Shown here: in pieces, positions 1,697-49,994 of the stretch
Numbering within the stretch: position 1 is the stretch's first letter
How the letters are laid out: the number at the start of each line of letters is the position of its first letter
From: a phage
Direction: 5' to 3' (one strand)
DNA length: 64,000 bases
NCBI GenBank assembly: GCA_037574385.1
Contig: GCA_037574385.1_4529.1
Made by a program: the position numbers and the translations under genes
Notes under the pieces: model-generated
Database searches by the model: none
Told to the model about the DNA's origin: nothing
Seen by the model: only the letters and a program-made list of their open reading frames with translations

Positions 1697-1704
1697 CGAA
1701 AAAA

Positions 1705-1730
1705 AGCGGAAGAGGTCGCCCTCTTCCGCT
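1705..1730. terminator. Bidirectional rho-independent terminator between convergent eamB and grcA
   Basis: Perfect hairpin agcggaagagg-tcgc-cctcttccgct flanked by A-run and T-rich sequence. Confidence 0.6.
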
Positions 1731-1751
1731 TAGTAACTTGCTACTTAAGCC

Positions 1752-2114
1752 TTACAGGCTTTCAGTAAAGGTACGAGCGATAACGTCGCGCTGCTGTTCC
1801 GGAGTCAGAGAGTTAAAGCGAACTGCATAACCGGATACACGGATGGTCAGCTGCGGATATTTTTCCGGATGCTTAACTGCATCTTCCAGAGTTTCGCGAC
1901 GCAGAACGTTAACGTTCAGGTGTTGACCACCTTCAATTTTAACTTTAGGTTGATGTTCAATTTCAATTTCACGGGCATTCAAACCGTAGAAAATTTCTGG
2001 GTCTACAATAGCGTCTTCTTTAAAAGCCTTAGAGACAATAATCCGGGCTTGAGTACCGTCTTCAAAATAAATAGTGCCTTTATGTGCACCTTCAAGAATT
2101 TGATATGCTTTCAT
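1752..2114 (-). CDS. grcA: Autonomous glycyl-radical cofactor GrcA/YfiD family; chimeric: C-terminal half host-type, N-terminal half phage-type (T4 Y06I-like)
   Basis: C-terminus [59 protein letters not shown] matches E. coli GrcA with glycyl-radical motif RVSGY; N-terminal 58 aa diverged and encoded by AT-rich DNA. Confidence 0.8.
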
Positions 2115-2965: not shown

Positions 2966-3138
2966 TTAGTTTCTCTTAAGGTTGGGGCCATTCCATGGCA
3001 CATGTTAGGTCCTTCGACTCACTATGTAAACCCATTACCGCACTTGGGCTCGACCTTATTACAGGTTGGAAAAGGTACATCACTCAGAGGACTCGACGTT
3101 CATGAGGAGAGGTTGCGTTTCCCTTTATTAGGCAAGAA

Positions 3139-3468
3139 TTATACTCTAGGCTTTTGAGCTTGTTTGGTATTGGATTCCCACGCTGCTTTGGTAATTTTGT
3201 TAGCGGCATAGCCAAAGGCATTAGATAGAACACCTTTAGAGTTGAATACATCCAATCCAATAAGTACACCGGCTGCGTTAAATTTAGGAGCAAAGTACGC
3301 ATTAGTTTTAGAAAGAGCTTTTTTCAATTCAGGGTCTTGAACCAAGCCATCAAAAACGCCTTTACTATTTACTTTATATGTTACTTTGGGATTTTTACCT
3401 TCTTCGATAGCAGCTTTCTGTTCCGCAGATAATGTAACTTCAGTGATAAACTCTTGATATGTTTTCAT
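3139..3468 (-). CDS. Capsid-targeted internal protein candidate (CTS-bearing), 109 aa
   Basis: N-terminus MKTYQEFITE matches the T4 internal-protein capsid-targeting sequence (MKTYQEFIAE). Confidence 0.6.
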   Translation of the reverse strand: MKTYQEFITEVTLSAEQKAAIEEGKNPKVTYKVNSKGVFDGLVQDPELKKALSKTNAYFAPKFNAAGVLIGLDVFNSKGVLSNAFGYAANKITKAAWESNTKQAQKPRV

Positions 3469-3509
3469 ATGTTTCCTTTAAATGTAAATAGGCCTAAGTA
3501 TAGGCCTTA

Positions 3510-4088
3510 TTAATTACCACGGGCTGCATTAGCAACGGCGTAAGCGTACTGAACATTAGCGTCTTTAAACGTACCTTTAGAGGTATCTATTTCTGCCTTA
3601 AAGCCGCCTTTAGCCATAACATCGGCAAATTCTTTACGGAAAGCCATTGCGTCAAGACCTTTCCATGATGATTTATGCTTGGCAAATTCAAGACCAGCGT
3701 AGTTGACAGCTTTAGCCAATTTATTATCAATGACCCATTTACCTGCTTTAGGCACAAACTTCGGGCCTTTTTGTTTAGAGAACAGTTTTAAATTCCAGCG
3801 ACGAAGGTCACTGTCGGCTTTAACAAAAGCTGCGTCTAAGTTACTAGCAACAACATCTTCAATATGAGCAAATTTAAGACCATCAACTTCAATATTTAGA
3901 TCGTTACGCCAGCGAAGTCCTTCCCAAGCGAAGGCTTTAAAGTCGGAAGCCTTTGTAGCTAAGTACCGTTCAATAGGAGCAGTTTTAGGGTCAAAGCCGT
4001 TTCCGCCACGATAATTCCACTCGTCCTTATTAATGCCTTGGACTTTTCCTGCAAAGGCCTCGGCGATAAATTCTTTATATGTTTTCAT
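3510..4088 (-). CDS. Capsid-targeted internal protein candidate, 192 aa (size of T4 IPIII); start at internal MKTYKEFIAEA
   Basis: CTS MKTYKEFIAE preceded by RBS AAGGAAAC; ORF-track ORF extends 14 codons upstream. Confidence 0.6.
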   Translation of the reverse strand: MKTYKEFIAEAFAGKVQGINKDEWNYRGGNGFDPKTAPIERYLATKASDFKAFAWEGLRWRNDLNIEVDGLKFAHIEDVVASNLDAAFVKADSDLRRWNLKLFSKQKGPKFVPKAGKWVIDNKLAKAVNYAGLEFAKHKSSWKGLDAMAFRKEFADVMAKGGFKAEIDTSKGTFKDANVQYAYAVANAARGN

Positions 4089-4153
4089 TTTTGTTTCCTT
4101 GTTTGTTTTGATAGAGTAATTATACCCCATATTAATACTTAAGCGTAAACAAT

Positions 4154-4414
4154 TTAAGCTTTACCGCCAGAAATAATTCCGAAGTTGTTAAAATCGTATC
4201 CAATATCGTCAGCATCTACTTTAGGGCTTGCTACAACATAAGCAATTTCACGACGTTTTGCATAGGTGTTGATTTCTTTACCATCGCCACCTAAGAAAGA
4301 ATACCCATTACGTTTTAATGAGCCAAAGTCTTCGGCATCACCAACGAAAGCTTTAACTTTAAATTTGGGGTCTTTGGCATCTGCTTCAGTGATAAATTCT
4401 TGATACATTTTCAT
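4154..4414 (-). CDS. Capsid-targeted internal protein candidate, 86 aa; start at internal MKMYQEFITEA
   Basis: CTS-like N-terminus MKMYQEFITE with RBS AAGGAAAAA; immediately downstream of denV. Confidence 0.6.
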   Translation of the reverse strand: MKMYQEFITEADAKDPKFKVKAFVGDAEDFGSLKRNGYSFLGGDGKEINTYAKRREIAYVVASPKVDADDIGYDFNNFGIISGGKA

Positions 4415-4421
4415 TTTTTCC

Positions 4422-4835
4422 TTAGTAAATTGATTTACCATAGTATTTGTACCAAGTCGGACGTTGAGCAATTTTTTCATCTAAGCGTGCTTGACTTATC
4501 GCAATGGACGCTTCGGACGGGACATAATTATTACGAAATTCGGCAGGGATGTCGGAAATATCCTGGACTGTCGTGTCCTTTATTTTGAAACCACGTTTCA
4601 AACATTCAGCGATTAGCTCGATTTGACGTAAACGTAAAAATTCGAGTTTGTCATAAAAGAATGTTACGTGACCTGTGCCTAAGATAAATGTTGGAGAGAT
4701 TTTAAAATCTTTTACACGTTTACCGTTTTGGACATGTTTACGGACTGCACCAAATACGCGTGGTAATTCACGATACTCAGCCATAAGATGTTGGTCGGTC
4801 AGTTCAGAAACAAGTGTTAAATTGATACGAGTCAT
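4422..4835 (-). CDS. denV: Endonuclease V (pyrimidine-dimer DNA glycosylase/AP lyase), start at MTRINLTLV
   Basis: Near-identical over full length to T4 DenV as recalled ([12 protein letters not shown]...[10 protein letters not shown]); RBS GGAGGAAATT. Confidence 0.9.
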
Positions 4836-4863
4836 AATTTCCTCCAAGTAGTTGATAGATGTA

Positions 4864-4893
4864 TAGTATCAAAACCCTTGGAGGAAGTAAACA
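4864..4893 (-). promoter_or_regulatory. T4-type early promoter (-35 GTTTAC, N18, extended -10 TGnTACTAT) upstream of denV
   Basis: Minus-strand GTTTAC...TGATACTAT in the 58-bp gap upstream of denV. Confidence 0.5.
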
Positions 4894-5175
4894 CTATTTT
4901 TCTGAAGCGCCTGAAATATATTTTTCAAGACGTTGTTTCATCAGCGAGCCGTTCTTAGCGATTTCTTCCGGTTTATCGCACATACGCAACAAGGCTTCAA
5001 GCTTAACGATATCGCTGGTACGTTCAAATTTGCGAGTATCTATCTTACTAGCAAGTTCAGAAATACGTGCTAATAGACTTTCAGCTTCAACCAAAGCTGC
5101 ACCTAGCTTAGTTGCAAATGTGTCAGTAGCTTCGTTAAGAATAGATTCTGATAAAAATTCACTATATGTTTTCAT
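4894..5175 (-). CDS. Capsid-targeted internal protein candidate, 93 aa; start at [10 protein letters not shown]
   Basis: CTS-like N-terminus; its ATG overlaps the TGA stop of gene e (ATGA coupling); sits at the T4 ipII/ipIII position. Confidence 0.6.
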
Positions 5176-5660
5176 ATATACGCTTTCCAAGTTCCTGTTT
5201 TAAATGTTGAGATTACGCGTTTCGCACGATTAGGTGTCTGACGATACCATTTAGATTGGGCTAGATTTACTGCCGCTTCATCCCAACGTTTCTGTTGAAG
5301 CATACGAAGAGAATTAGTAAAACCAGCAACGCCTGCTACACCCATTTGGAAGACCATATTGACTAATGCACATCGACGAACCGCGTCTAAAGAATCATAC
5401 ACTGGTTTAAGTTTAGCATTACCCAAGATTCCACGAACGGCTTTATCAACATCTTCATTAAATAGCTTTTCAGCCTCATCAAGGGTAATTGTACCGTTGC
5501 ATTTACGACCGATCATTCTATCAAGTTCAGCTTTAGCTACGGCTAAAGACGGGTTCTTTGTTACCAAATGGCCTATGCCAATAGTCCAAAAGCCTTCGGT
5601 GTCTTTGTATAAAGACAGTCTAAGACCTTCGTCATTACGAAGCATTTCAAATATATTCAT
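5172..5660 (-). CDS. e: Phage lysozyme (endolysin, T4 gene e), start at MNIFEMLR
   Basis: Collinear high identity with T4 lysozyme as recalled ([27 protein letters not shown]...[31 protein letters not shown]). Confidence 0.95.
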
Positions 5661-11787: not shown

Positions 11788-12015
11788 TTATTTTTTAATC
11801 AAATTGACATAAAACTTGGCGTCTTCTGGGTGCATGCCTTCGCAATATTCTTCAACCATGAACTTCTTAACAGCTTCATAAGGACCACTCAGATTAAGCT
11901 CAGTTGTCCAGAACTTGGAATCTTGGACTGAATCGATACGAACTTCAGGGTGTCGGTTGCGAATAACTTCTTCGGTGTATTCATAATCAACGACATCAAT
12001 ACTAACTTTAGCCAT
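11788..12015 (-). CDS. Hypothetical small protein (75 aa)
   Basis: ORF with RBS GAGGAGAAA preceded by the promoter/5'UTR module also found at ~48620. Confidence 0.45.
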   Translation of the reverse strand: MAKVSIDVVDYEYTEEVIRNRHPEVRIDSVQDSKFWTTELNLSGPYEAVKKFMVEEYCEGMHPEDAKFYVNLIKK

Positions 12016-12044
12016 TTTGTTTCTCCTCTGTAGTTGATAAGTCT

Positions 12045-12074
12045 ATAGTATCACCATCCTTGGTGTTTGTACAT
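12045..12074 (-). promoter_or_regulatory. Early-promoter-like element (TGATACTAT extended -10; divergent -35)
   Basis: About 30 bp identical to the cassette upstream of 48344..48613 (gtagttgataagtctatagtatcac). Confidence 0.4.
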
Positions 12075-12082
12075 CATTATTT

Positions 12083-12388
12083 TTAATTTTTCCAACTTAA
12101 CAACTTGTAGTGTCCTTCATTCGTACGAGGTTTATCCCAAGAAATACTAATATATGATTCACTGTCAATAGAAGTCGCCGGGTTTTTCTCTACCGTAAGA
12201 CCTTCACTTTCCAGCCATTCAATAGTGTTTGCGCATAAATCTGAAGAACACCTCATCGGAAACTGGCAAGATTTTTCACCTTTAGCTGCAGCATTATACA
12301 TCTTTTCTAAAATACGCTTTTGCACGTTTTTAAAAATAGTTTCAGCAGATTCTTCAGATTTTTTATTCAGTTCAGTGTAAAGACTCAT
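12083..12388 (-). CDS. Hypothetical small protein (101 aa; start at MSLYTEL with SD GAGGAG)
   Basis: ORF; ORF-track ORF extends 9 codons upstream. Confidence 0.45.
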   Translation of the reverse strand: MSLYTELNKKSEESAETIFKNVQKRILEKMYNAAAKGEKSCQFPMRCSSDLCANTIEWLESEGLTVEKNPATSIDSESYISISWDKPRTNEGHYKLLSWKN

Positions 12389-12445
12389 AATATTCTCCTC
12401 ATTAATAGGGCTCATAATATCTCAATCATAAGCCCATGTACGCAT

Positions 12446-12721
12446 TTATTTCATATTATCGAAATATTCTTCAGCGATTTCGACATTATCATGGTAAACT
12501 TTAGAAGACAGTTTAACATAACCTTCTGCTGCGAACATATTAATCACAACCTTTACAGTATACCATTGTCCGTCTTCATTACCCATTACTGCGTAAGTTT
12601 CAAACATCGGATGGTCAGGTCCAATAACTTTAATATCATTCACCGTACGTCCGAAATCTTCTGGAATGCATTTCATAAAGAAGTTGAACAGTTCACCGTA
12701 ATTATCCATTTCATTCTCCAA
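12446..12721 (-). CDS. Hypothetical small protein (91 aa)
   Basis: ORF downstream of an early promoter. Confidence 0.45.
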   Translation of the reverse strand: MENEMDNYGELFNFFMKCIPEDFGRTVNDIKVIGPDHPMFETYAVMGNEDGQWYTVKVVINMFAAEGYVKLSSKVYHDNVEIAEEYFDNMK

Positions 12722-12781: not shown

Positions 12782-12883
12782 AGTTTTGTGAAAAAAATTT
12801 TTAAAAAGTTTTGGGGAATTCTAGGACAGGGAGAGGAAAGGCCTAGATACCAAAAAGCCCTATCTAAATGATAGGGCTTAAAA

Positions 12884-13447
12884 TTATTTACCTAGTTTAG
12901 TTATTATAGCTTCGGCAGCAGCTTTTAGCTTAGATGCAGTGTTAATACGATTTTTAATTTCGGTATACGCATCGCCAAGAACATCAAGGCTATCAGAATA
13001 AACACTTACACTATTGCGTTCGCTATTTGAAATAGAACCTTTAGTTTTACGATCAAAATCAGTGTACACGTCTTGAAGATCACGGGCTGCCTTCTTTGCA
13101 TCATCCAATGCGTCAAGAGCTTTATTCAAAGCATTGACATATTTTTTAGTGTCAAACATATTCTTAGAAATTTTAACAGGTGCACGTTCAGGAGTAGCTA
13201 AGGCGGATTTAGGAACCTGTGTGCCAGCTGCCAGTTTCTTAGAAATTTTGAAAAACGCTTTATTGAAACTATTTTCTTGACTCATCGTAAAAGAACTAGT
13301 ATCGATGTTATACATTTCAATAGCTTTAGCTTTCCACTTAAGAAAATCGCCACGGTCTTTTGGATCCAAGTTGAAGAATACTTTAGTAAGATCTGCTTCA
13401 GATGGTAATTTTGCTGCTTCGGTTAAAAATTCGGCATAGGTTTTCAT
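12884..13447 (-). CDS. Capsid-targeted internal protein candidate (187 aa) beside the tRNA cluster
   Basis: N-terminus MKTYAEFLTEA (CTS-like); Lys/Ala-rich. Confidence 0.55.
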   Translation of the reverse strand: MKTYAEFLTEAAKLPSEADLTKVFFNLDPKDRGDFLKWKAKAIEMYNIDTSSFTMSQENSFNKAFFKISKKLAAGTQVPKSALATPERAPVKISKNMFDTKKYVNALNKALDALDDAKKAARDLQDVYTDFDRKTKGSISNSERNSVSVYSDSLDVLGDAYTEIKNRINTASKLKAAAEAIITKLGK

Positions 13448-13531
13448 TTAAAATCCTTGAAATAATTTATCGGTTTGTTATTAATTATTTATTACTTTGG
13501 TATTATCAGTAACAGCATTCTCTGAGTGATT

Positions 13532-14239: not shown

Positions 14240-14316
<77 letters not shown>

Positions 14317-14322
14317 AATATA

Positions 14323-14396
14323 TGACCCAGACCAGATTCGAACTGGTAACCTTTCCCTTATGAGGGGACTGCTGCTAACCGTTGAGCTACAGGGCC
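14323..14396 (-). tRNA. tRNA with anticodon CAU (Ile2-type or Met), CCA not encoded
   Basis: Acceptor GGCCCUG/CUGGGUC (one U-U mismatch), anticodon loop CUCAUAA, T-arm ACCAG-UUCGAAU-CUGGU; lies 6 nt upstream of tRNA-Arg. Confidence 0.55.
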
Positions 14397-15903: not shown

Positions 15904-16191
15904 TTACAGAAGAGTTTTTGCAATAATTTTAAGCTGAGCTACAGAAATATGCTTAGCTTTAAACAGTGCAGTCTCTTCAGCCGGAGAGATAACAATAGTA
16001 GCGCCGTCTTTCTTAGCAGACCATCCATCCCCTAAGTAAACAGTACCTTTTACTTCTTCGCCATCAACCAGACTAATCATTGGTTTACCCTCACGTCCTT
16101 TATTTGCTTTAATAACTTCAGAAGTAAGGGTTGCTTCGGTCAGAGTAGAAACGTTAGCAACAGGTGATATAAATTCTTTATAGGTTTTCAT
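15904..16191 (-). CDS. ipI: Internal protein I (IPI-like; in T4 an inhibitor of GmrSD type IV restriction)
   Basis: 95 aa, CTS MKTYKEFIS; central region matches recalled T4 IPI (SEVIKANKG.EGKPMISLVDGEE.KGTVYLGDGWSAKKDGATIVISPAEETALF); beside 57B as in T4. Confidence 0.75.
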   Translation of the reverse strand: MKTYKEFISPVANVSTLTEATLTSEVIKANKGREGKPMISLVDGEEVKGTVYLGDGWSAKKDGATIVISPAEETALFKAKHISVAQLKIIAKTLL

Positions 16192-42985: not shown

Positions 42986-44557
42986 ATGAAATTTAATATC
43001 TTAAGTTTGTTTGCTCCATGGGCAAAAATGGACGAACGTGATTACAAAGACCAAGAAAAAGAAAATTTAGAATCGATTACCACACCAAAATTAGATGATG
43101 GTGCTAAAGAATACGAAGTATCTGAAAATGAAGCACAGCAAACATATAATGCTATGTTTCAGAGAATGTTTGGTAGCCAAGAACCAGGGCTCAAATCAAC
43201 CCGTGAATTAATCGATACATACCGAAATTTGATGACGAACTATGAAGTAGACAATGCAGTCTCTGAAATAGTTTCCGATGCTATCGTATACGAAGATGAT
43301 ACAGAAGTCGTTTCTATAAATTTAGACAACACAAAATTTAGTCCAAATATCAAATCAATGATGTTGGATGAATTTAACGAAGTGTTAAATCATTTATCTT
43401 TCCAACGTAAAGGTTCAGACCATTTTAGACGTTGGTATGTGGATTCTCGAATTTTCTTCCATAAAATTATTGACCCTAAACGCCCTAAAGAAGGTATTAA
43501 AGAGCTTCGTCGTTTAGACCCACGTCAAGTTCAATATGTCCGTGAAGTTATTACAACCACTGAAGCCGGTGTTAAAATAGTCAAGGGTTATAAAGAATAT
43601 TTCATTTATGACACATCACACGAATCTTATGCTTGTGACGGTCGCATATATGAAGCTGGCACAAAAATAAAAATCCCTAAAGCCGCGATTGTTTATGCCC
43701 ATTCTGGTTTAGTTGATTGTTGTGGTAAAAATATCATTGGTTATTTGCATCGGGCTATTAAGCCGGCGAACCAATTAAAACTTCTTGAAGATGCTGTCGT
43801 AATTTATCGTATTACTCGTGCTCCCGATCGTCGTGTATGGTACGTTGATACAGGTAATATGCCTTCAAGAAAAGCAGCAGAACATATGCAACATGTTATG
43901 AATACGATGAAAAACCGTATTGCATATGATGCTACTACAGGCAAGATTAAAAACCAGCAGCATATTATGTCGATGACCGAAGATTATTGGTTACAACGAC
44001 GTGATGGTAAAGCAGTAACAGAAGTTGATACATTACCGGGGGCAGATAATACTGGAAATATGGAAGATGTACGTTGGTTCCGTAATGCGCTTTATATGGC
44101 TTTACGTATTCCAATTACCCGTATTCCAAGCGACCAAGGCGGTATACAGTTTGATGCCGGTACTTCTATTACACGAGATGAATTGACATTTGGTAAATTT
44201 ATTCGTGAGCTGCAACATAAATTTGAAGAGATATTCCTAGATCCGCTTAAAACTAATTTAATTCTTAAAGGAATTATTACAGAAGATGAGTGGAATGATG
44301 AAATAAATAATATTAAGATAAAATTTCATCGGGATAGTTATTTCTCGGAATTAAAGGATGCTGAGATTCTGGAGCGTCGCATTAATATGCTTCAGATGGC
44401 CGAACCATTTATTGGTAAATATATTTCCCACAGAACAGCTATGAAAGATATTCTTCAGATGTCTGACGAGGAAATTGAACAAGAGGCTAAGCAAATTGAA
44501 GAAGAGTCGAAAGAGGCTCGTTTCCAAGACCCCGACCAAGAACAAGAGGATTTTTAA
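42986..44557 (+). CDS. 20: gp20 portal vertex protein
   Basis: 523 aa (T4 524); synteny. Confidence 0.95.
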
Positions 44558-44793
44558 TGGACGATTTAATTCAAGCTATTAAATCAAACGACCTCGTTGC
44601 TACTCGAAAGTTTTTTGAAAGTGCAATGGCAGAAAAAACGGTTCGTTTGATTGAAGCACGCAAAGCAGAAATCGCTTCTCAATTTTTGATTGAAGGCGAA
44701 GAACCTGAAGAAGAAAAGAAAGCTAAAGCTTCGGAAGACGACGCTGATGAAGGCGATGACGACGAAGACGAAGATGATGAGGACGATGAATAA
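44557..44793 (+). CDS. 67: gp67 prohead core protein
   Basis: 78 aa with acidic D/E-rich C-terminus. Confidence 0.8.
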
Positions 44794-45218
44794 TGTATCT
44801 TATCCCTGAATCTTATGAATTAGTACTCGAAAATGTCGAAGCACTTATTCCTGAAGCACAGGGCCGAATCGATGCATTGTCTTCTGCTCTCGATATTGAC
44901 GATATAAATACTATTATCGAGAACATGCTTGAAACTGAAACGGATTTAGCTGTTGCAATGGCTTCCATTATTAATGAAGAACAGTTAAATGAGTTTATCG
45001 TTAAACATGTTTCTTCTCGTGGTGAAGTCACCCGCACTAAAGACCGTAAAACTCGTGAACGTAACGCGTTCCAAACAACTGGTCTTTCTAAAGCAAAACG
45101 TAGACAAATCGCTCGTAAGGTCGTTAAAGCTAAAAAAGCTAACCCTTCAGGCCAAGTTAAAGGCTTGCGTAAGCGTAAAAAAGCTCTTAAACGTCGTAAA
45201 GCATTAGGATTAAGCTAA
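44793..45218 (+). CDS. 68: gp68 prohead core protein
   Basis: 141 aa as T4 gp68; basic C-terminus. Confidence 0.8.
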
Positions 45219-45859
45219 TGAATAAACCCGAGTTACTTATTGAAACTTGGGGTCAACTCGGTGAGATTATTGATGGCGTTCCAATGTTGGAATCTCATGA
45301 TGGAAAAGATTCTGGCTTAAAACCAGGGCTTTATATAGAAGGTATTTTTCTTCAGGCAGAGGTTGTTAACCGAAATAAACGTTTATATCCTAAACGCGTT
45401 TTGGAAAAAGCAGTAAGTGACTATATTAAAGAACAAGTCGCAACTAAACAGGCCCTTGGAGAATTAAACCATCCACCTCGCGCAAATGTTGACCCTATGC
45501 AAGCCGCTATCATTATTGAAGATATGTGGTGGAAAGGAAACGATGTATATGGACGCGCTAGAATTATTGAAGGCGACCATGGTCCCGGCGATAAATTAGC
45601 TGCTAATATACGAGCTGGTTGGATTCCAGGTGTTTCCTCTCGTGGTCTTGGTTCTTTAACCGACACCAATAAAGGGTACCGTATCGTGAACGAAGGATTT
45701 AAATTAACCGTCGGCGTAGATGCCGTATGGGGACCTTCTGCTCCAGATGCTTGGGTTACTCCTAAACAAATATCAGAATCAGAAAATTCGGTGGAAATCA
45801 CCAAAAACAGTGCTGATGAAGCATTTAAAGCTCTCGCAGAGAGTTTAAAAGCATTATAA
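45218..45859 (+). CDS. 21: gp21 prohead core protease
   Basis: 213 aa (T4 212); synteny 68-21-22-23. Confidence 0.9.
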   Translation: MNKPELLIETWGQLGEIIDGVPMLESHDGKDSGLKPGLYIEGIFLQAEVVNRNKRLYPKRVLEKAVSDYIKEQVATKQALGELNHPPRANVDPMQAAIIIEDMWWKGNDVYGRARIIEGDHGPGDKLAANIRAGWIPGVSSRGLGSLTDTNKGYRIVNEGFKLTVGVDAVWGPSAPDAWVTPKQISESENSVEITKNSADEAFKALAESLKAL

Positions 45860-45862
45860 ATA
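45855..45862 (+). promoter_or_regulatory. T4 late promoter TATAAATA for gene 22
   Basis: Exact TATAAATA 30 bp upstream of gene 22 start. Confidence 0.55.
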
Positions 45863-45892
45863 ATAATGTAATCTAAACCACAGGACACTAAA

Positions 45893-46705
45893 ATGATCAA
45901 AGAACAACTTTTGAAAGAAGCTCAGAATATCGAGACTTCAGTTGCTCTTAATAGTGTTTTCGAATCAGTAGAACTGTCTCCGGACGTTAAAGCTAATTTC
46001 AGCACTGTATTCGAAGCCACCGTTAAGCAGGAAGCAGTCAAACTTGCTGAATCTCATATCAAAGCCATCGCCGAAAAAGCCGAAGAAGAAGTTGAAAAGG
46101 CTAAAGAAGATGCTGAAGAGAAAGCTGATAAAAAATTGGCTGAACAAGCTTCTAAATTCCTGGACCATCTTGCAAAAGAATGGCTCGCAGAAAACCAAAT
46201 CGCAGTTGATAAAGGCATTAAAGCTGATTTGTTCGAATCCATGCTTGGTGGTCTGAAAGAACTGTTTGTTGAACATAACGTTGTTGTTCCAGAAGAATCT
46301 GTAGATGTTGTAGCAGAAATGGAAGAAGAGCTGGCCGAACATAAAGAAGAAACCGCTCGTTTGTTCGAAGAAGTTACCAAACGTGATGCATATATCAATT
46401 ACGTTCAGCGTGAAACCGCTATTAATGAAAGCGTGAAAGACCTGACTGAATCTCAGAAAGAAAAAGTTATTGGCCTGGTTGAAGGTATGGATTATTCTGA
46501 CGCATTTGGTACTAAGTTAACTGCTATTGTAGAAATGGTTAAAGGTTCTACTAAAGAAGAAGCCGCTATTACCGAAAGTATAAATACAGTTGACAATGAC
46601 GCTGCCGGTCTTAATTTTGTTGCCGAAGCAGTTGACACTACCACAACTCAGGTAGAACAGAATTCTAATGTAAGTTTATATGCGAAAGTCGCATCTCGTT
46701 TCTAA
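45893..46705 (+). CDS. 22: gp22 prohead core scaffold protein
   Basis: 270 aa acidic coiled-coil protein (T4 269). Confidence 0.9.
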   Translation: MIKEQLLKEAQNIETSVALNSVFESVELSPDVKANFSTVFEATVKQEAVKLAESHIKAIAEKAEEEVEKAKEDAEEKADKKLAEQASKFLDHLAKEWLAENQIAVDKGIKADLFESMLGGLKELFVEHNVVVPEESVDVVAEMEEELAEHKEETARLFEEVTKRDAYINYVQRETAINESVKDLTESQKEKVIGLVEGMDYSDAFGTKLTAIVEMVKGSTKEEAAITESINTVDNDAAGLNFVAEAVDTTTTQVEQNSNVSLYAKVASRF

Positions 46706-46722
46706 TTTAAAGGTTAACACAA

Positions 46723-48291
46723 ATGACTACTATCAAAACTAAAGCTCAGCTCGTAGACAAATGGAAAGAACTGCTGGAAGGTGAAGGCCTGCCGGAAATC
46801 GCTAATAGCAAGCAGGCTATTATCGCTAAAATCTTCGAAAACCAGGAAAAAGATTTCGAAGTATCCCCTGAATATAAAGACGAGAAAATCGCTCAGGCAT
46901 TTGGTTCTTTCTTGACCGAAGCTGAAATTGGTGGTGACCACGGTTATAATGCTCAGAACATCGCAGCAGGTCAAACCTCTGGTGCAGTAACCCAGATTGG
47001 GCCAGCAGTTATGGGTATGGTTCGTCGTGCTATTCCTAATCTGATCGCTTTTGATATTTGTGGTGTTCAGCCTATGAACAGCCCTACCGGTCAGGTATTT
47101 GCTCTTCGTGCAGTATATGGTAAAGACCCTATCGCTGCTGGCGCTAAAGAAGCTTTCCATCCGATGTATGCTCCGGATGCAATGTTCTCTGGTCAGGGCG
47201 CTGCTAAGAAATTCCCGGCGTTGGCTGCTAGCACACAAACCGTTGTAGGTGATATCTATACTCACTTCTTCCAGGAAACTGGTACTGTATATCTGCAAGC
47301 TTCCGCTGTAGTAACAATCGATGCTAGTGCTAACGATGCAACTAAATTAGATGCTGAAATTAAGAAACAAATGGAAGCGGGTGTACTGGTAGAAATCGCT
47401 GAAGGTATGGCTACTTCTATTGCTGAACTTCAGGAAGGTTTCAACGGTTCTACTGATAACCCATGGAATGAAATGGGCTTCCGTATCGATAAACAAGTTA
47501 TCGAAGCTAAATCTCGCCAGCTGAAAGCTGCTTACTCTATCGAATTAGCACAAGACCTCCGTGCAGTACACGGTATGGATGCTGATGCTGAACTGAGCGG
47601 TATCCTGGCTACAGAAATTATGCTAGAAATCAACCGTGAAGTTGTTGACTGGATTAACTACTCTGCTCAGGTTGGTAAATCTGGTATGACCCTGACTCCG
47701 GGTTCTAAAGCTGGTGTATTTGACTTCCAGGACCCGATTGATATCCGTGGTGCTCGTTGGGCCGGTGAAAGCTTTAAATCTCTGTTGTTCCAGATTGATA
47801 AAGAAGCAGTTGAAATCGCTCGTCAAACCGGTCGTGGTGAAGGTAACTTCATTATCGCTTCCCGTAACGTAGTTAACGTACTGGCTTCAGTTGATACTGG
47901 TATTTCTTACGCTGCACAGGGTCTGGCTTCTGGTTTTAATACTGACACTACTAAGTCTGTATTTGCCGGTGTACTTGGTGGTAAATACCGCGTATACATC
48001 GACCAGTATGCTAAACAGGATTACTTCACCGTTGGTTATAAAGGCGCTAACGAAATGGATGCAGGTATTTACTATGCTCCTTACGTTGCACTTACCCCGC
48101 TGCGTGGTTCCGATCCTAAGAACTTCCAGCCGGTAATGGGCTTTAAAACTCGTTACGGTATCGGTGTTAACCCGTTTGCTGAAAGTTCCCTGCAGGCTCC
48201 AGGTGCTCGCATCCAGTCCGGTATGCCGTCTATCCTGAACAGCCTTGGTAAGAACGCTTACTTCCGCCGTGTATATGTAAAAGGCATCTAA
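46723..48291 (+). CDS. 23: gp23 major capsid protein
   Basis: 522 aa (T4 521); synteny. Confidence 0.95.
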   Translation: MTTIKTKAQLVDKWKELLEGEGLPEIANSKQAIIAKIFENQEKDFEVSPEYKDEKIAQAFGSFLTEAEIGGDHGYNAQNIAAGQTSGAVTQIGPAVMGMVRRAIPNLIAFDICGVQPMNSPTGQVFALRAVYGKDPIAAGAKEAFHPMYAPDAMFSGQGAAKKFPALAASTQTVVGDIYTHFFQETGTVYLQASAVVTIDASANDATKLDAEIKKQMEAGVLVEIAEGMATSIAELQEGFNGSTDNPWNEMGFRIDKQVIEAKSRQLKAAYSIELAQDLRAVHGMDADAELSGILATEIMLEINREVVDWINYSAQVGKSGMTLTPGSKAGVFDFQDPIDIRGARWAGESFKSLLFQIDKEAVEIARQTGRGEGNFIIASRNVVNVLASVDTGISYAAQGLASGFNTDTTKSVFAGVLGGKYRVYIDQYAKQDYFTVGYKGANEMDAGIYYAPYVALTPLRGSDPKNFQPVMGFKTRYGIGVNPFAESSLQAPGARIQSGMPSILNSLGKNAYFRRVYVKGI

Positions 48292-48315
48292 TCTTAATTG
48301 ATTAAATCTTATTTT

Positions 48316-48333
48316 GGGAGACTTCGGTCTCCC
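48316..48333 (+). terminator. Rho-independent terminator after gene 23
   Basis: GGGAGAC-UUCG-GUCUCCC followed by AUUUUUGGUUUU. Confidence 0.6.
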
Positions 48334-48343
48334 ATTTTTGGTT

Positions 48344-48613
48344 TTATTTCTGGGCAATTTCGATGTAAGTTTTCAAAATATTTTGCCAATTAGGCATACC
48401 TTCTTGGACATATGCTGGAGAACCGTCTTTGTTTTTGAATGATGCAAGTTTATCAGTGGCCCAATAGCCTTTAGCTCGAGCTTCAGAATCAACTTTCATC
48501 CATACTTTGTTGAAGGCATTACCATTAACTTTTGCACCATATTTTTCTACTAACTTAACCGCTTCAGCTTCCAGAACTTTTAAAGTATCTCGTAAGAAAC
48601 GTGCTTTAGTCAT
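48344..48613 (-). CDS. Hypothetical small protein (89 aa) at the T4 segD position between genes 23 and 24
   Basis: Minus-strand ORF with RBS GAGGAG and its own early promoter; not homing-endonuclease-like. Confidence 0.5.
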   Translation of the reverse strand: MTKARFLRDTLKVLEAEAVKLVEKYGAKVNGNAFNKVWMKVDSEARAKGYWATDKLASFKNKDGSPAYVQEGMPNWQNILKTYIEIAQK

Positions 48614-48643
48614 TTTGTTTACTCCTCTGTAGTTGATAAGTCT

Positions 48644-48673
48644 ATAGTATCACATACCAAATACGTTGTAAAC
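48644..48673 (-). promoter_or_regulatory. T4-type early promoter (GTTTAC-N18-TGATACTAT) for the 89-aa gene
   Basis: Same ~30-bp promoter/5'UTR module as at ~12030. Confidence 0.5.
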
Positions 48674-48679
48674 AATCTT

Positions 48680-48687
48680 TATAAATA
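48680..48687 (+). promoter_or_regulatory. T4 late promoter TATAAATA for gene 24
   Basis: Exact TATAAATA 26 bp upstream of gene 24 start. Confidence 0.55.
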
Positions 48688-48713
48688 ATCTATATCACAT
48701 AAGGAAAAATGCA

Positions 48714-49994
48714 ATGAGTAAAATCCAAAAATTATTGCGTGAATCTACAACGTCTACTAGCAACTCAATTGGTCGCCCAAATCTTGTTGCTTTGACTCGC
48801 GCTACGACTAAATTAATATATTCTGACATTGTGGCAACACAAAGAACTAATCAACCTGTTGCTGCTTTTTATGGTATTAAATATCTTAACCCAGACAACG
48901 AATTAACGTTTAAAACTGGTGCTACTTATGCCGGCGAAGTTGGATATGTAGACCGAGAAAAAATTACTGAACTCACAGAAGAATCAAAAGTCACACTAAA
49001 TAAAGGCGATTTTTTCAAATATAATAATATCGTCTATAAAGTGTTAGAAGATACACCATTTGCAGATATTCAAGAAAGTGATCTAGAATTAGCTCTTCAG
49101 ATTGCAGTCGTTCATTTAAAGGTACGGTTATTTTCAGATGCAGCGGTGACAAGCAAATTTGAAAGCTCTGGTAGCGAAATTTCTGATGCAAGATTCCAAA
49201 TTAATAAATGGCAAACTTCGGTCAAATCTCGTAAACTTAAAACCGGTCTCACGGTTGAATTAGCGCAAGATTTGGAAGCGAATGGATTTGATGCCCCTAA
49301 CTTCTTAGAAGATTTGCTTGCTACTGAAATGGCTGATGAAATTAATAAAGATATTCTTCAGTCTTTAATTACTGTATCGAAACGTTATAAAGTTACTGGA
49401 ATTACTGACACCGGATTTATTGACTTGAGCTATGCATCCGCTCCAGAAGCAGGTCGTTCGTTATATCGAATGGTGTGTGAAATGGTATCACACATTCAAA
49501 AAGAGTCAACTTATACTGCGACGTTTTGTGTAGCTTCAGCTCGTGCAGCTGCTATTCTTGCTGCTTCAGGTTGGTTAAAACATAAACCAGAAGATGATAA
49601 GTATCTTTCACAAAATGCTTACGGGTTCTTAGCTAATGGTTTACCGCTTTATTGCGATACTAACAGCCCATTAGATTATGTGATCGTTGGCGTAGTAGAA
49701 AATATCGGTGAAAAAGAAATTGTTGGATCAATTTTCTATGCCCCGTATACAGAAGGTCTCGACTTAGATGACCCGGAACATGTTGGTGCATTTAAAGTTG
49801 TAGTTGATCCAGAAAGCTTGCAACCGTCTATTGGTTTATTGGTTAGATACGCTTTATCTGCGAATCCTTACACAGTAGCAAAAGATGAAAAAGAAGCGAG
49901 AATAATTGATGGCGGGGACATGGATAAAATGGCGGGACGTTCGGACTTGTCTGTTTTACTTGGTGTTAAATTGCCTAAAATTATTATAGATTAA
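48714..49994 (+). CDS. 24: gp24 capsid vertex protein
   Basis: 426 aa (T4 427); synteny. Confidence 0.9.
   Translation: MSKIQKLLRESTTSTSNSIGRPNLVALTRATTKLIYSDIVATQRTNQPVAAFYGIKYLNPDNELTFKTGATYAGEVGYVDREKITELTEESKVTLNKGDFFKYNNIVYKVLEDTPFADIQESDLELALQIAVVHLKVRLFSDAAVTSKFESSGSEISDARFQINKWQTSVKSRKLKTGLTVELAQDLEANGFDAPNFLEDLLATEMADEINKDILQSLITVSKRYKVTGITDTGFIDLSYASAPEAGRSLYRMVCEMVSHIQKESTYTATFCVASARAAAILAASGWLKHKPEDDKYLSQNAYGFLANGLPLYCDTNSPLDYVIVGVVENIGEKEIVGSIFYAPYTEGLDLDDPEHVGAFKVVVDPESLQPSIGLLVRYALSANPYTVAKDEKEARIIDGGDMDKMAGRSDLSVLLGVKLPKIIID

Follow-up and report, generated by a model that had tools for sequence, protein, structure and literature searches.

Six capsid-targeting-sequence genes in a Mosigvirus genome: candidate packaged inhibitors of type IV restriction

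We scanned the window, a 64-kb (64,000-nucleotide) stretch of phage DNA, in all six frames for the capsid-targeting sequence (CTS) of T4 internal proteins (Ips). The regular expression MK.Y.EF[ILVM] matched six times and nowhere else, each match heading an ORF on the minus strand, in agreement with the direction in which that part of the genome is transcribed. Loosening the motif brought in just one further ORF, which was unrelated. These are exactly the six genes that an earlier sequence-only reading had singled out as CTS-type ORFs. From the amino-acid frequencies, 0.0023 matches would be expected in the six-frame translation; with roughly 0.002 expected and six found, all on one strand, a chance origin of the N-terminal motif is ruled out.

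Automated ORF calls begin too far upstream for three of the CTS ORFs, and the start codons chosen in that reading are the right ones. Each chosen ATG has a Shine–Dalgarno sequence (AAGGA/GGAAA) 5–9 nt upstream or forms an ATGA overlap with the stop codon of gene e. All six coordinates agree with the RefSeq gene calls of near-identical Mosigvirus genomes. In the four-gene block around denV, the ORFs measure 330, 579, 261 and 282 nt, just as the RefSeq CDSs of phage phiC120 do; the two sequences share 96.8% identity across this block. ORFs antisense to the block on the plus strand (e.g. 4859-5203) were dropped because the homologues and annotations all lie on the minus strand. At the left end of the window (1700-2000), host eamB runs into phage vs.7, a chimera that may be either genuine recombination or an artefact of assembly. 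The exact late-promoter sequence TATAAATA was absent upstream of all six genes, where sites with one mismatch were the only ones found.

In the direction of transcription, the block begins with a gene for a 93-residue internal protein of the Ip5 family (4894..5175, minus strand), whose ATG overlaps the stop codon of the lysozyme gene e. Its product matches phrog_3499 (‘internal head protein’, E = 1e-46), is found by tblastn in 497 phage records, and is 88% identical to ‘ip5’ of VR25 and 48–51% identical to RB51 Ip5 and the T6/T2 copies, which lie in the ipI locus. The gene is followed by denV (endonuclease V; 4422..4835, minus strand), a landmark that interrupts the array and does not encode a CTS protein. 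This gene was identified by homologous placement, being annotated at the corresponding place in phiC120, mogra and RB69, and has 79% DNA identity to T4 denV. Between the two, folding reveals an RNA hairpin (4839..4886, minus strand) with a 10-bp stem (−19.9 kcal/mol, z = −3.45; none of 200 shuffled sequences folded as stably), whose 3′ arm holds the denV Shine–Dalgarno sequence GGAGG (4841-4845) and whose 5′ arm and loop are overlapped by the early-promoter-like sequence GTTTAC-N18-TACTAT.

Beyond denV lies the gene for an 86-residue CTS protein (4154..4414, minus strand; MKMYQEFITE/ADAKD..., mature part 76 residues, pI 6.4), equivalent to RB69ORF125c. The protein matches phrog_2667 (‘internal head protein’, E = 1e-21), carries that same label in RefSeq, and occurs in 220 phage records, with homologues of 32–75% identity in Gaprivervirus, Salmonella and Morganella T4-like phages. 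The next gene is the ipIII orthologue (3510..4088, minus strand; MKTYKEFIAE/AFAGK...), with 92% identity to T4 IPIII over 192 residues and a match to phrog_5341 (E = 1e-117). It shares with T4 IPIII an identical CTS architecture and the same hotspot beside e and denV. A GC-rich stem-loop, GGCCUAuacuUAGGCC, followed by a U-rich stretch (3491..3506, minus strand; −11.6 kcal/mol, z = −3.2), separates ipIII from the last gene of the block and lies within a segment exchanged as a unit in RB69. That last gene encodes a 109-residue CTS protein (3139..3468, minus strand; MKTYQEFITE/VTLSAEQ..., mature part 99 residues, pI 9.7), equivalent to RB69ORF123c and matching phrog_3966 (‘unknown function’, E = 1.5e-32). 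Nearly all of its 91 records read ‘hypothetical protein’, one reads ‘endonuclease repair enzyme’ and none reads internal protein. Its WG01 homologue is only 36% identical, yet keeps MKTYQQFITE. The gene order e-ip5-like-denV-p86-ipIII-p109 thus compares with e-ipIII-ipII-denV in T4; the window has no ipII, and the unrelated 109-residue protein fills the slot after ipIII, a slot still occupied by a true ipII in the closely related phage mogra.

The remaining two genes lie further into the window. The ipI orthologue (15904..16191, minus strand) encodes 95 residues, comprising a 19-residue propeptide ending in LTE and a mature IPI* of 76 residues. Residues 20–95 match Pfam IPI_T4 (PF11634; E = 1.3e-50, 169.7 bits, cut-off 25), a family that none of the other five CTS proteins matches. 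The 76-residue chain of PDB 2JUB aligns to the same residues (E = 6e-42), so that the solved IPI* chain begins exactly at residue 20. The product has the same sequence as RB69 IPI and is 88% identical to T4 IPI, the inhibitor of the GmrSD of E. coli CT596, with four differences in the mature part. It also resembles T4 IPI in its 19-residue propeptide ending in (I/L)TE and in its locus, trna.4 to 57B, and differs in that its propeptide start, MKTYKEFIS, is nearer to the canonical CTS than T4 MKTFKEFTS. The sixth gene (12884..13447, minus strand) encodes a 187-residue CTS protein (MKTYAEFLTE/AAKLPSE...) with a mature part of 177 residues (pI 9.5), predicted to be all-helical. Immediately after it is an intrinsic-terminator-like hairpin, AGCCCUAUC...GAUAGGGCU plus U5, read from the sequence (12852..12878, minus strand). 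The protein matches phrog_2280 (‘unknown function’, E = 8e-53) and occurs in 165 Mosigvirus and Tequatrovirus records, labelled ‘hypothetical’ in all of them; a homologue of 31% identity starts MITFNEFLNE. Five of the six genes sit in the hypervariable Ip loci (e-denV-vs.8 or trna.4-57B). The exception is the 187-residue gene between e.8 and the tRNA genes, a third position compared with the ‘two Ip loci’ of the literature.

In T4, suppressor genetics showed that Y/F4 and F7 of the CTS govern targeting, and I/L8 and E10 govern cleavage by gp21 (PMC9026906). Y4 and F7 are present in all six ORFs. In a set of 11 families with unrelated mature parts, drawn from five phages, Y4, E6 and F7 never vary, and I/L8 and E10 almost never do. 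The cleavage motif (I/L)-x-E occupies residues 8–10 in five of the proteins (ITE, IAE, ITE, LSE and LTE) and residues 17–19 (LTE) in IPI. The 93-residue protein carries two [LI]xE sites (residues 10 and 15), with SILNE between them and then A. The CTS persists in homologues whose mature parts are just 31–36% identical. The enzyme that removes the CTS, the gp21 prohead protease, is encoded in the window (45218..45859, plus strand; Pfam Peptidase_S77, E = 1.4e-106), among the prohead core genes 67, 68, 21 and 22 (44557..46705, plus strand; Pfam GP67, 3e-20, and T4_CASP, 1.5e-89), of which gene 68, without a Pfam match, was assigned by comparing its place and length with the T4 map. The portal gene 20 (42986-44557; Pfam Portal_T4) and the capsid genes 23 and 24 (46723-49994; Pfam Gp23) flank them. 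The N-termini are of the T4 type, as first read: they carry the experimentally important residues, and the window also encodes their protease.

Behind this shared start, the mature parts have no similarity to one another (all-against-all BLASTP, best E = 0.3), and PHROG cross-matches between the CTS proteins are limited to residues 1–41. Three of the mature domains are basic (pI 9.5–9.7, net charge +7 to +9), and those of the 86- and 93-residue proteins have a pI of 6.3–6.4 and a net charge of 0; with three basic and two neutral or slightly acidic, a single biochemical mode is not evident. For the 86-, 93-, 109- and 187-residue proteins, Pfam, NCBIfam, PADLOC and PDB sequence searches gave no functional hint. 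Weak Pfam matches (cytochrome b562, ALIX) and weak PDB matches (E > 0.03) were discarded, being attributable to helical repeats or chance. A search of 5.8 billion proteins with the 109-, 187- and 86-residue queries returned nothing beyond near-identical sequences. Two partial short matches (P0012 and P0013) were set aside, as they look like chimeric short-read contigs, and an exhaustive search of representatives with the 187-residue query gained one informative distant homologue (P0025). AlphaFold2 models of the 187-residue protein (single sequence; pLDDT 62.7, pTM 0.30) and the 86-residue protein (5-sequence alignment; pLDDT 45.4) were too poor for fold comparison.

Whole mature domains have been exchanged among related phages, with homology restarting at the boundary between tag and mature part. 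Against mogra, homology is lost over 3005-3437, where the 109-residue mature part stands opposite ipII, and returns at 3438, the first base past CTS codon 10. Against RB69, it is lost over 3478-4059, where the ipIII mature part stands opposite the Ip10-like RB69ORF124c that replaces ipIII there, and returns at 4060, inside the last CTS codon. Ip5 homologues have also changed locus: those of RB51 and T6 belong to the ipI locus, and that of the window stands beside gene e. The six CTS-coding repeats (3439..3468, 4059-4088, 4385-4414, 5146-5175, 13418-13447 and 16135-16191, all minus strand) form, together with the upstream Shine–Dalgarno sequence, a stretch of 36–53 bp that is 77–92% identical among paralogues in BLASTN cross-matches and DNA alignment. 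We propose that this conserved DNA heading each gene could serve as the short homology for recombination, and that mature domains would thereby be swapped between slots, loci and phages, diversifying the repertoire. The window is a clean example of such a cassette swap. Three families are degenerate in RB69, where the 187-residue gene is frameshifted, ORF123c carries E10A and the Ip5-like ORF127c has a degraded CTS (MKTYMNFYQN), and these families are therefore dispensable in some lineages.

Taking these features together, the six ORFs are probably the Ip genes of a Mosigvirus (RB69-like T-even) phage, diversified by cassette exchange and encoding packaged, injected inhibitors of type IV restriction. 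Packaging of all six as CTS proteins appears very likely. Each product would be synthesised with an N-terminal CTS of about 10 residues, which would dock it on the scaffolding core during prohead assembly; the CTS is thought to bind the gp22/gp67/gp68 scaffold. The gp21 protease would then cut after the Glu of (I/L)-x-E (residue 10, or 19 in IPI), freeing the mature domain in the head, from which it would be ejected with the DNA ahead of all phage gene expression. Once in the cell, it would bind and block a host nuclease already present that attacks DNA with sugar-modified hydroxymethylcytosine (hmC). The presumed targets are type IV enzymes of the GmrSD/BrxU or McrBC kind, with one enzyme subtype for each mature domain. 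Packaging, cleavage, injection and anti-GmrSD activity are taken from the literature on T4 Ip1–3 and extended to the 86-, 93-, 109- and 187-residue proteins.

This literature bears most directly on two of the genes. T4 Ip1, Ip2 and Ip3 each block a distinct GmrSD, without cross-protection (Silas 2025, PMC12373910); Ip2 inhibits the BrxU-like GmrSD of ECOR21 and Ip3 the two-gene GmrSD of ECOR17. IPIII expressed in the host without its CTS still rescues infection (PMC9391042). The link that the sequence-only reading had drawn to the T4 IPI*/GmrSD pair holds, in that the ipI and ipIII of the window are orthologous to proteins of demonstrated anti-GmrSD activity (PMC12373910; PMC9391042), and from this orthology we infer that both products block GmrSD. 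For the four non-T4 proteins (86, 93, 109 and 187 residues), analogy with these cases somewhat favours inhibition of type IV restriction. Bas37_0260, a CTS protein of the ipI locus, inhibits McrBC (preprint, 10.1101/2025.11.20.689424), and CTS proteins can therefore hit type IV enzymes besides GmrSD; as judged from its description, it has the same N-terminal signal as the window proteins and an unrelated mature part. Against another five active GmrSD systems, Ip4–10 of T4-like phages showed no inhibition that could be reproduced (PMC12373910, Supplementary Fig. 9). The DNA of this phage lineage carries arabinosyl-hmC, not glucosyl-hmC (PMC6024577), which may make the targets different from the ones mapped with T4.

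One alternative is a mainly structural role for the extra proteins, as abundant basic fillers of the head that would neutralise DNA charge, aid in packaging the genome or ejecting it, or join the scaffold as auxiliary components, with any anti-defence action secondary. T4 heads hold about 360 copies of each of IPI, IPII and IPIII, whose lysines touch DNA phosphates (PMC3012670; PMC9026906), and IPIII mutants assemble heads more slowly, with burst size down to about 40% and more polyheads (PMC9026906). The three basic mature domains would fit such a role, whereas the uncharged 86- and 93-residue proteins would not, and a generic charge function gives no selection for unrelated folds, fast cassette turnover or strict one-to-one specificity. 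Each T4 Ip has a specific GmrSD target (PMC12373910), and T4 lacking all three grows on laboratory hosts (PMC9026906); we regard a mainly structural role as quite improbable. Less probable still is that some of the six are evolutionary passengers, which would have lost efficient packaging or usefulness and whose CTS-like start would be kept only by recombination homogenising the heads of paralogous genes. The CTS DNA is a recombination substrate, and the degenerate RB69 copies described above are of the kind expected of passengers; however, all six window copies are intact, with full CTS and cleavage motif, and the families are 95–100% identical across 91 to 497 independent isolates. The CTS is also retained at 31–36% identity, too distant for gene conversion by close paralogues to be a likely cause, and CTS codon usage differs between paralogues, which argues for selection on the peptide.

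A further alternative keeps injection and changes the target of the non-T4 proteins to something other than type IV restriction. Candidates would be further immediate-early defences (BREX, DISARM, Druantia, nuclease-helicase systems, RecBCD-type exonucleases), the physiology of the host, or rival phages through superinfection exclusion. The lack of reproducible Ip4–10 activity on the GmrSD panel would fit it, and T4 Alt, another packaged protein, is a host-takeover enzyme and no restriction inhibitor (PMC9026906). The 187-residue protein, which is larger, with two helical parts predicted, and lies outside the classical Ip loci, could be of this kind. Against this, all four CTS proteins of known target (Ip1, Ip2, Ip3 and Bas37_0260) inhibit type IV enzymes, and GmrSD diversity is large, with just 15 groups sampled, all with glucosyl-hmC phages (PMC12373910). 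Nor did the Pfam, NCBIfam and PDB searches give a domain or fold match pointing to a different activity, and we consider a target outside type IV restriction unlikely. A bolder variant is about as doubtful: the 109- and 187-residue proteins would be unrecognised Ip families, the latter at a third Ip locus (e.8-tRNA) in Mosigvirus and Tequatrovirus, and both would, once injected, inhibit a kind of defence new to Ips, such as arabinosyl-hmC-specific nucleases or a non-type-IV defence. Type IV restriction remains our preferred target for all six proteins.

Loading into the head, processing by the prohead protease and delivery with the DNA before phage expression (PMC9026906; PMC9024508, PMC5694885) are also features of DarA/DarB of P1, the ejection proteins of the giant phages phiKZ/SPN3US, whose propeptides are likewise removed by a protease, and T4 Alt. 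Their targeting signals, proteases and cleavage motifs are different, and they are not known to be related in sequence to the Ips. Far closer are the polymorphic Ip genes of T-even phages (Ip4–Ip13+; Repoila 1994, Comeau 2007), which are reported to combine a shared leader with unrelated mature parts and to cluster in hypervariable loci flanked by early-promoter/stem-loop modules (PMC2839356, PMC3012670, PMC12373910). The window genes have the same anatomy, and the 93-residue protein belongs to the named Ip5 family.

The observation is thus real and its interpretation sound, but the class and its anti-restriction role are already published, and conceptually there is nothing new. More than 30 Ip variants had been catalogued by 2007 (PMC2839356). 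The idea of Ips as injected anti-restriction proteins appears in reviews of 2010 (PMC3012670) and was tested in 2022–2025, so that the class, its leader, its hypervariability and the anti-type-IV function of its best-studied members are all in print. Our literature search found no virion proteome of any Mosigvirus. By annotation, the six comprise two T4 orthologues, one Ip5-family member, one ‘internal head protein’ and two ‘hypothetical’ proteins (109 and 187 residues). The families of these last two have no Ip name in the records, and Repoila 1994 or Comeau 2007 may list them. Both phrog_3966 and phrog_2280, which are widespread and unannotated, would likely gain a function from their CTS. 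The survival of T-even phages in the first seconds in wild E. coli is decided by injected Ips, which therefore matter for host range and for designing phage-therapy cocktails.

Calling the array ‘expanded’, as the sequence-only reading did, is correct in that six CTS genes are present and overstated as a distinction, since RB69, WG01 and SP18 hold the same multi-gene arrays and six such genes are normal for non-T4 T-even phages. Its comparison figure of three in T4 is true for the canonical internal proteins; our scan of the whole T4 genome returned ipI, ipII and ipIII and, in addition, an unreported CTS-like N-terminus on gp61.1.

From about position 1745 to its end, the window is DNA of a Mosigvirus, an RB69-like genus of T-even phages. 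Region 2400–5700 matches 920 phage records and is collinear over its full length, at 96.5–97.7% identity, with Shigella phage ESh15 and Escherichia phages SQ17, phiC120, Av-05, S143_2 and phi25-307. We scanned all six frames of the window with MK.Y.EF[ILVM], a pattern for the T4-type capsid-targeting sequence (CTS), the N-terminal leader of ~10 residues removed by the prohead protease gp21. The scan returned exactly the six ORFs of the sequence-only reading, all on the minus strand, which is the coding strand for the genes of the window's first 17 kb. Amino-acid frequencies predict 0.0023 chance matches, and relaxing the pattern added a single, unrelated ORF. The internal start codons chosen in that reading are correct, with an AAGGA/GGAAA Shine-Dalgarno at the proper distance or an ATGA overlap with the stop of gene e, and the ORF lengths equal those of the phiC120 RefSeq coding sequences. 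The mature parts are indeed mutually dissimilar (best BLASTP E = 0.3), and the complete T4 genome yielded ipI, ipII and ipIII as its sole canonical members. As for an 'expanded array', six genes are present, but six internal-protein (Ip) genes are normal among non-T4 T-even phages; RB69, WG01 and SP18 have the same arrays.

Aligning the leaders of 11 unrelated mature families, from the window, T4, RB69, WG01 and SP18, showed positions 1, 2, 4, 6 and 7 to be invariant, with Ile or Leu at position 8 and Glu at position 10 in 10 of the 11. Among them are the residues to which suppressor genetics of T4 IPIII assigned targeting (4 and 7) and cleavage (8 and 10) (PMC9026906). The leader is kept although identity across the mature part falls to 36% (WG01 homologue of the 109-aa protein) and 31% (P0025, a distant homologue of the 187-aa protein). 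The gp21 protease and core proteins are encoded within the window, where late head genes 20, 67, 68, 21, 22, 23 and 24 occupy 42986–49994 on the plus strand. The T4 scan also showed a fourth CTS-like N-terminus, MKTFKEFIKE, with I-x-E at residues 8–10, in gene 61.1 (NC_000866, 18966–19130; 54 aa). Unlike the Ip genes, 61.1 is very widely conserved (1433 phage records by tblastn, including Vibrio KVP40, Aeromonas and Acinetobacter T4-likes); we found no literature on it.

The 192-aa product of 3510–4088 (minus strand, as are all six) is the ipIII orthologue, 92% identical to T4 IPIII (phrog_5341, E = 1e-117), and that of 15904–16191 (95 aa; Pfam IPI_T4, E = 1e-50) is the ipI orthologue and is identical to RB69 IPI; PDB 2JUB aligns to its residues 20–95, and the mature protein therefore begins after LTE19. 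The 93-aa product of 4894–5175 belongs to the Ip5 family (497 records), with 88% identity to VR25 'ip5' and 48–51% to Ip5 of RB51, T6, T2 and PST. The 86-aa product of 4154–4414 (RB69ORF125c; 220 records, RefSeq 'internal head protein') has homologues of 32–75% identity in Gaprivervirus and in Salmonella and Morganella T4-likes. The 109-aa product of 3139–3468 (RB69ORF123c, phrog_3966) has 91 records, nearly all 'hypothetical protein' and none labelled an internal protein, while all 165 records for the 187-aa product of 12884–13447 (phrog_2280) read 'hypothetical protein'. Very probably, phrog_3966 and phrog_2280 are Ip families unrecognised in any database annotation. Profile and PDB searches gave no functional match for the four non-T4 proteins, and AF2 models of the 187-aa and 86-aa proteins were of poor quality.

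The 187-aa gene (flanks 12852–13500) stands as a unit of its own, with e.8 on one side and the tRNA genes on the other. It has a separate terminator hairpin and, 38 nt upstream, a late-promoter-like AATAAATA carrying one mismatch; the corresponding e.8–rnaC gap of T4 is empty. The gene occupies a third position, outside the 'two Ip loci' of the literature. The adjacent tRNA genes are the window's only two (Arg-TCT and Met-CAT, 14240–14396, minus strand), as in RB69, while T4 has eight. P0025 (204 aa, 31% identical; Logan SRR28624380 contig, 1419–2033) lies on a 2.6-kb T4-like metagenomic contig beside a 30.3-like gene and an ART-PolyVal/DUF3990 gene. Its start, MITFNEFLNE, points to a diverged leader form in remoter T4-like phages.

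Comparison with phage mogra revealed a sole homology break, 3005–3437, where the 109-aa mature part replaces mogra ipII; homology returns at 3438, the first base past CTS codon 10. Against RB69, the break spans 3478–4059, the ipIII mature part and its terminator hairpin replacing the Ip10-like ORF124c, and homology returns at 4060, within the final CTS codon. DNA comprising the Shine-Dalgarno and CTS is repeated at the start of each gene (36–53 bp, 77–92% identity). In RB51 and T6 the ipI locus holds Ip5 homologues, whereas the window's member of that family lies beside gene e. Read from these junctions, the Ip repertoire evidently changes by modular shuffling via short stretches of conserved sequence, in the way earlier work described for Ip loci (PMC2839356). 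Three RB69 copies look degraded (coordinates of L004): the 187-aa homologue is split by a frameshift (ORF149c, 12051–12491, and ORF148c, 11929–12114), the Ip5-like ORF127c (3423–3704) has a degenerate leader, MKTYMNFYQN, with LNE retained at residues 13–15, and residue 10 of ORF123c (1950–2279) is Ala, not the Glu needed for cleavage. Such degradation suggests that packaging or processing has been lost in particular lineages.

The proposal that these proteins are candidate injected inhibitors of different host defences agrees with the published view; the observation is real and correctly read, and already known. Our additions are modest: the two probable Ip families and the third position. In the proposed chain, the CTS would direct packaging of each protein, gp21 would cleave it, and the mature protein would be ejected along with the DNA and specifically inhibit a modification-dependent nuclease already present in the host. 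This is the chain to which we commit. It is predicted for IPI and IPIII from their close orthology to proteins that have been tested, and is inferred for the four non-T4 proteins from their common anatomy and the known targets of CTS proteins, all four of which are type IV restriction systems. Arbiol et al. (2010) cited >30 Ip variants at two hypervariable loci (PMC2839356). Infection of ECOR17 needs ipIII, which works without its CTS when host-expressed (Srikant et al., 2022; PMC9391042). Ip1, Ip2 and Ip3 were each shown to block a GmrSD type IV enzyme distinct from those of the other two, without cross-protection, and GmrSD variants were proposed as targets of all Ip-loci proteins (Silas et al., 2025; PMC12373910). 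A further CTS protein inhibits McrBC (2025 preprint, 10.1101/2025.11.20.689424). In RB69-type phages the DNA contains arabinosyl-hmC, and IPI has four substitutions (PMC6024577).

Injected effectors aimed at something other than type IV restriction are unlikely given those four targets, though the lack of reproducible inhibition by ip4-10 of the further GmrSD systems assayed (PMC12373910) counts in their favour. Three mature parts are basic in pI and IPIII has an assembly phenotype (PMC9026906), both of which favour a structural or charge-neutralising role. That role is nonetheless rather improbable, since two mature parts have neutral pI and unrelated folds turn over rapidly. Partial decay of some of the genes is very improbable.

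Between the ip5-like gene and denV, a stable hairpin at 4839–4886 (minus strand; -19.9 kcal/mol, z = -3.45; stem of 10 bp) encloses the denV Shine-Dalgarno within its 3' arm, and an early-promoter-like GTTTAC-N18-TACTAT overlaps its 5' arm and loop. Translation of denV would be masked on readthrough transcripts from the upstream ip5-like gene and unmasked on transcripts begun inside the hairpin, a layout resembling that known for e, soc and other T4 genes.

The window does not start in phage DNA. Positions 1–1936, which cover yfiE, eamB and the grcA 3' end, match the E. coli chromosome at 100% identity. With phage homology starting at 1745, the junction falls within about 1762–1936, inside a ~175-bp segment where phage vs.6 (a GrcA homologue) and host grcA differ by 1–2 nt. 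Either an assembly chimera across this common segment or genuine host–phage recombination would account for the join. The near-identity recurs in phiC120, RB69 and even T4, although vs.6 is phage-specific in its 5' half. In itself, the near-identity suggests that host grcA and phage vs.6 have exchanged sequence recently or repeatedly.
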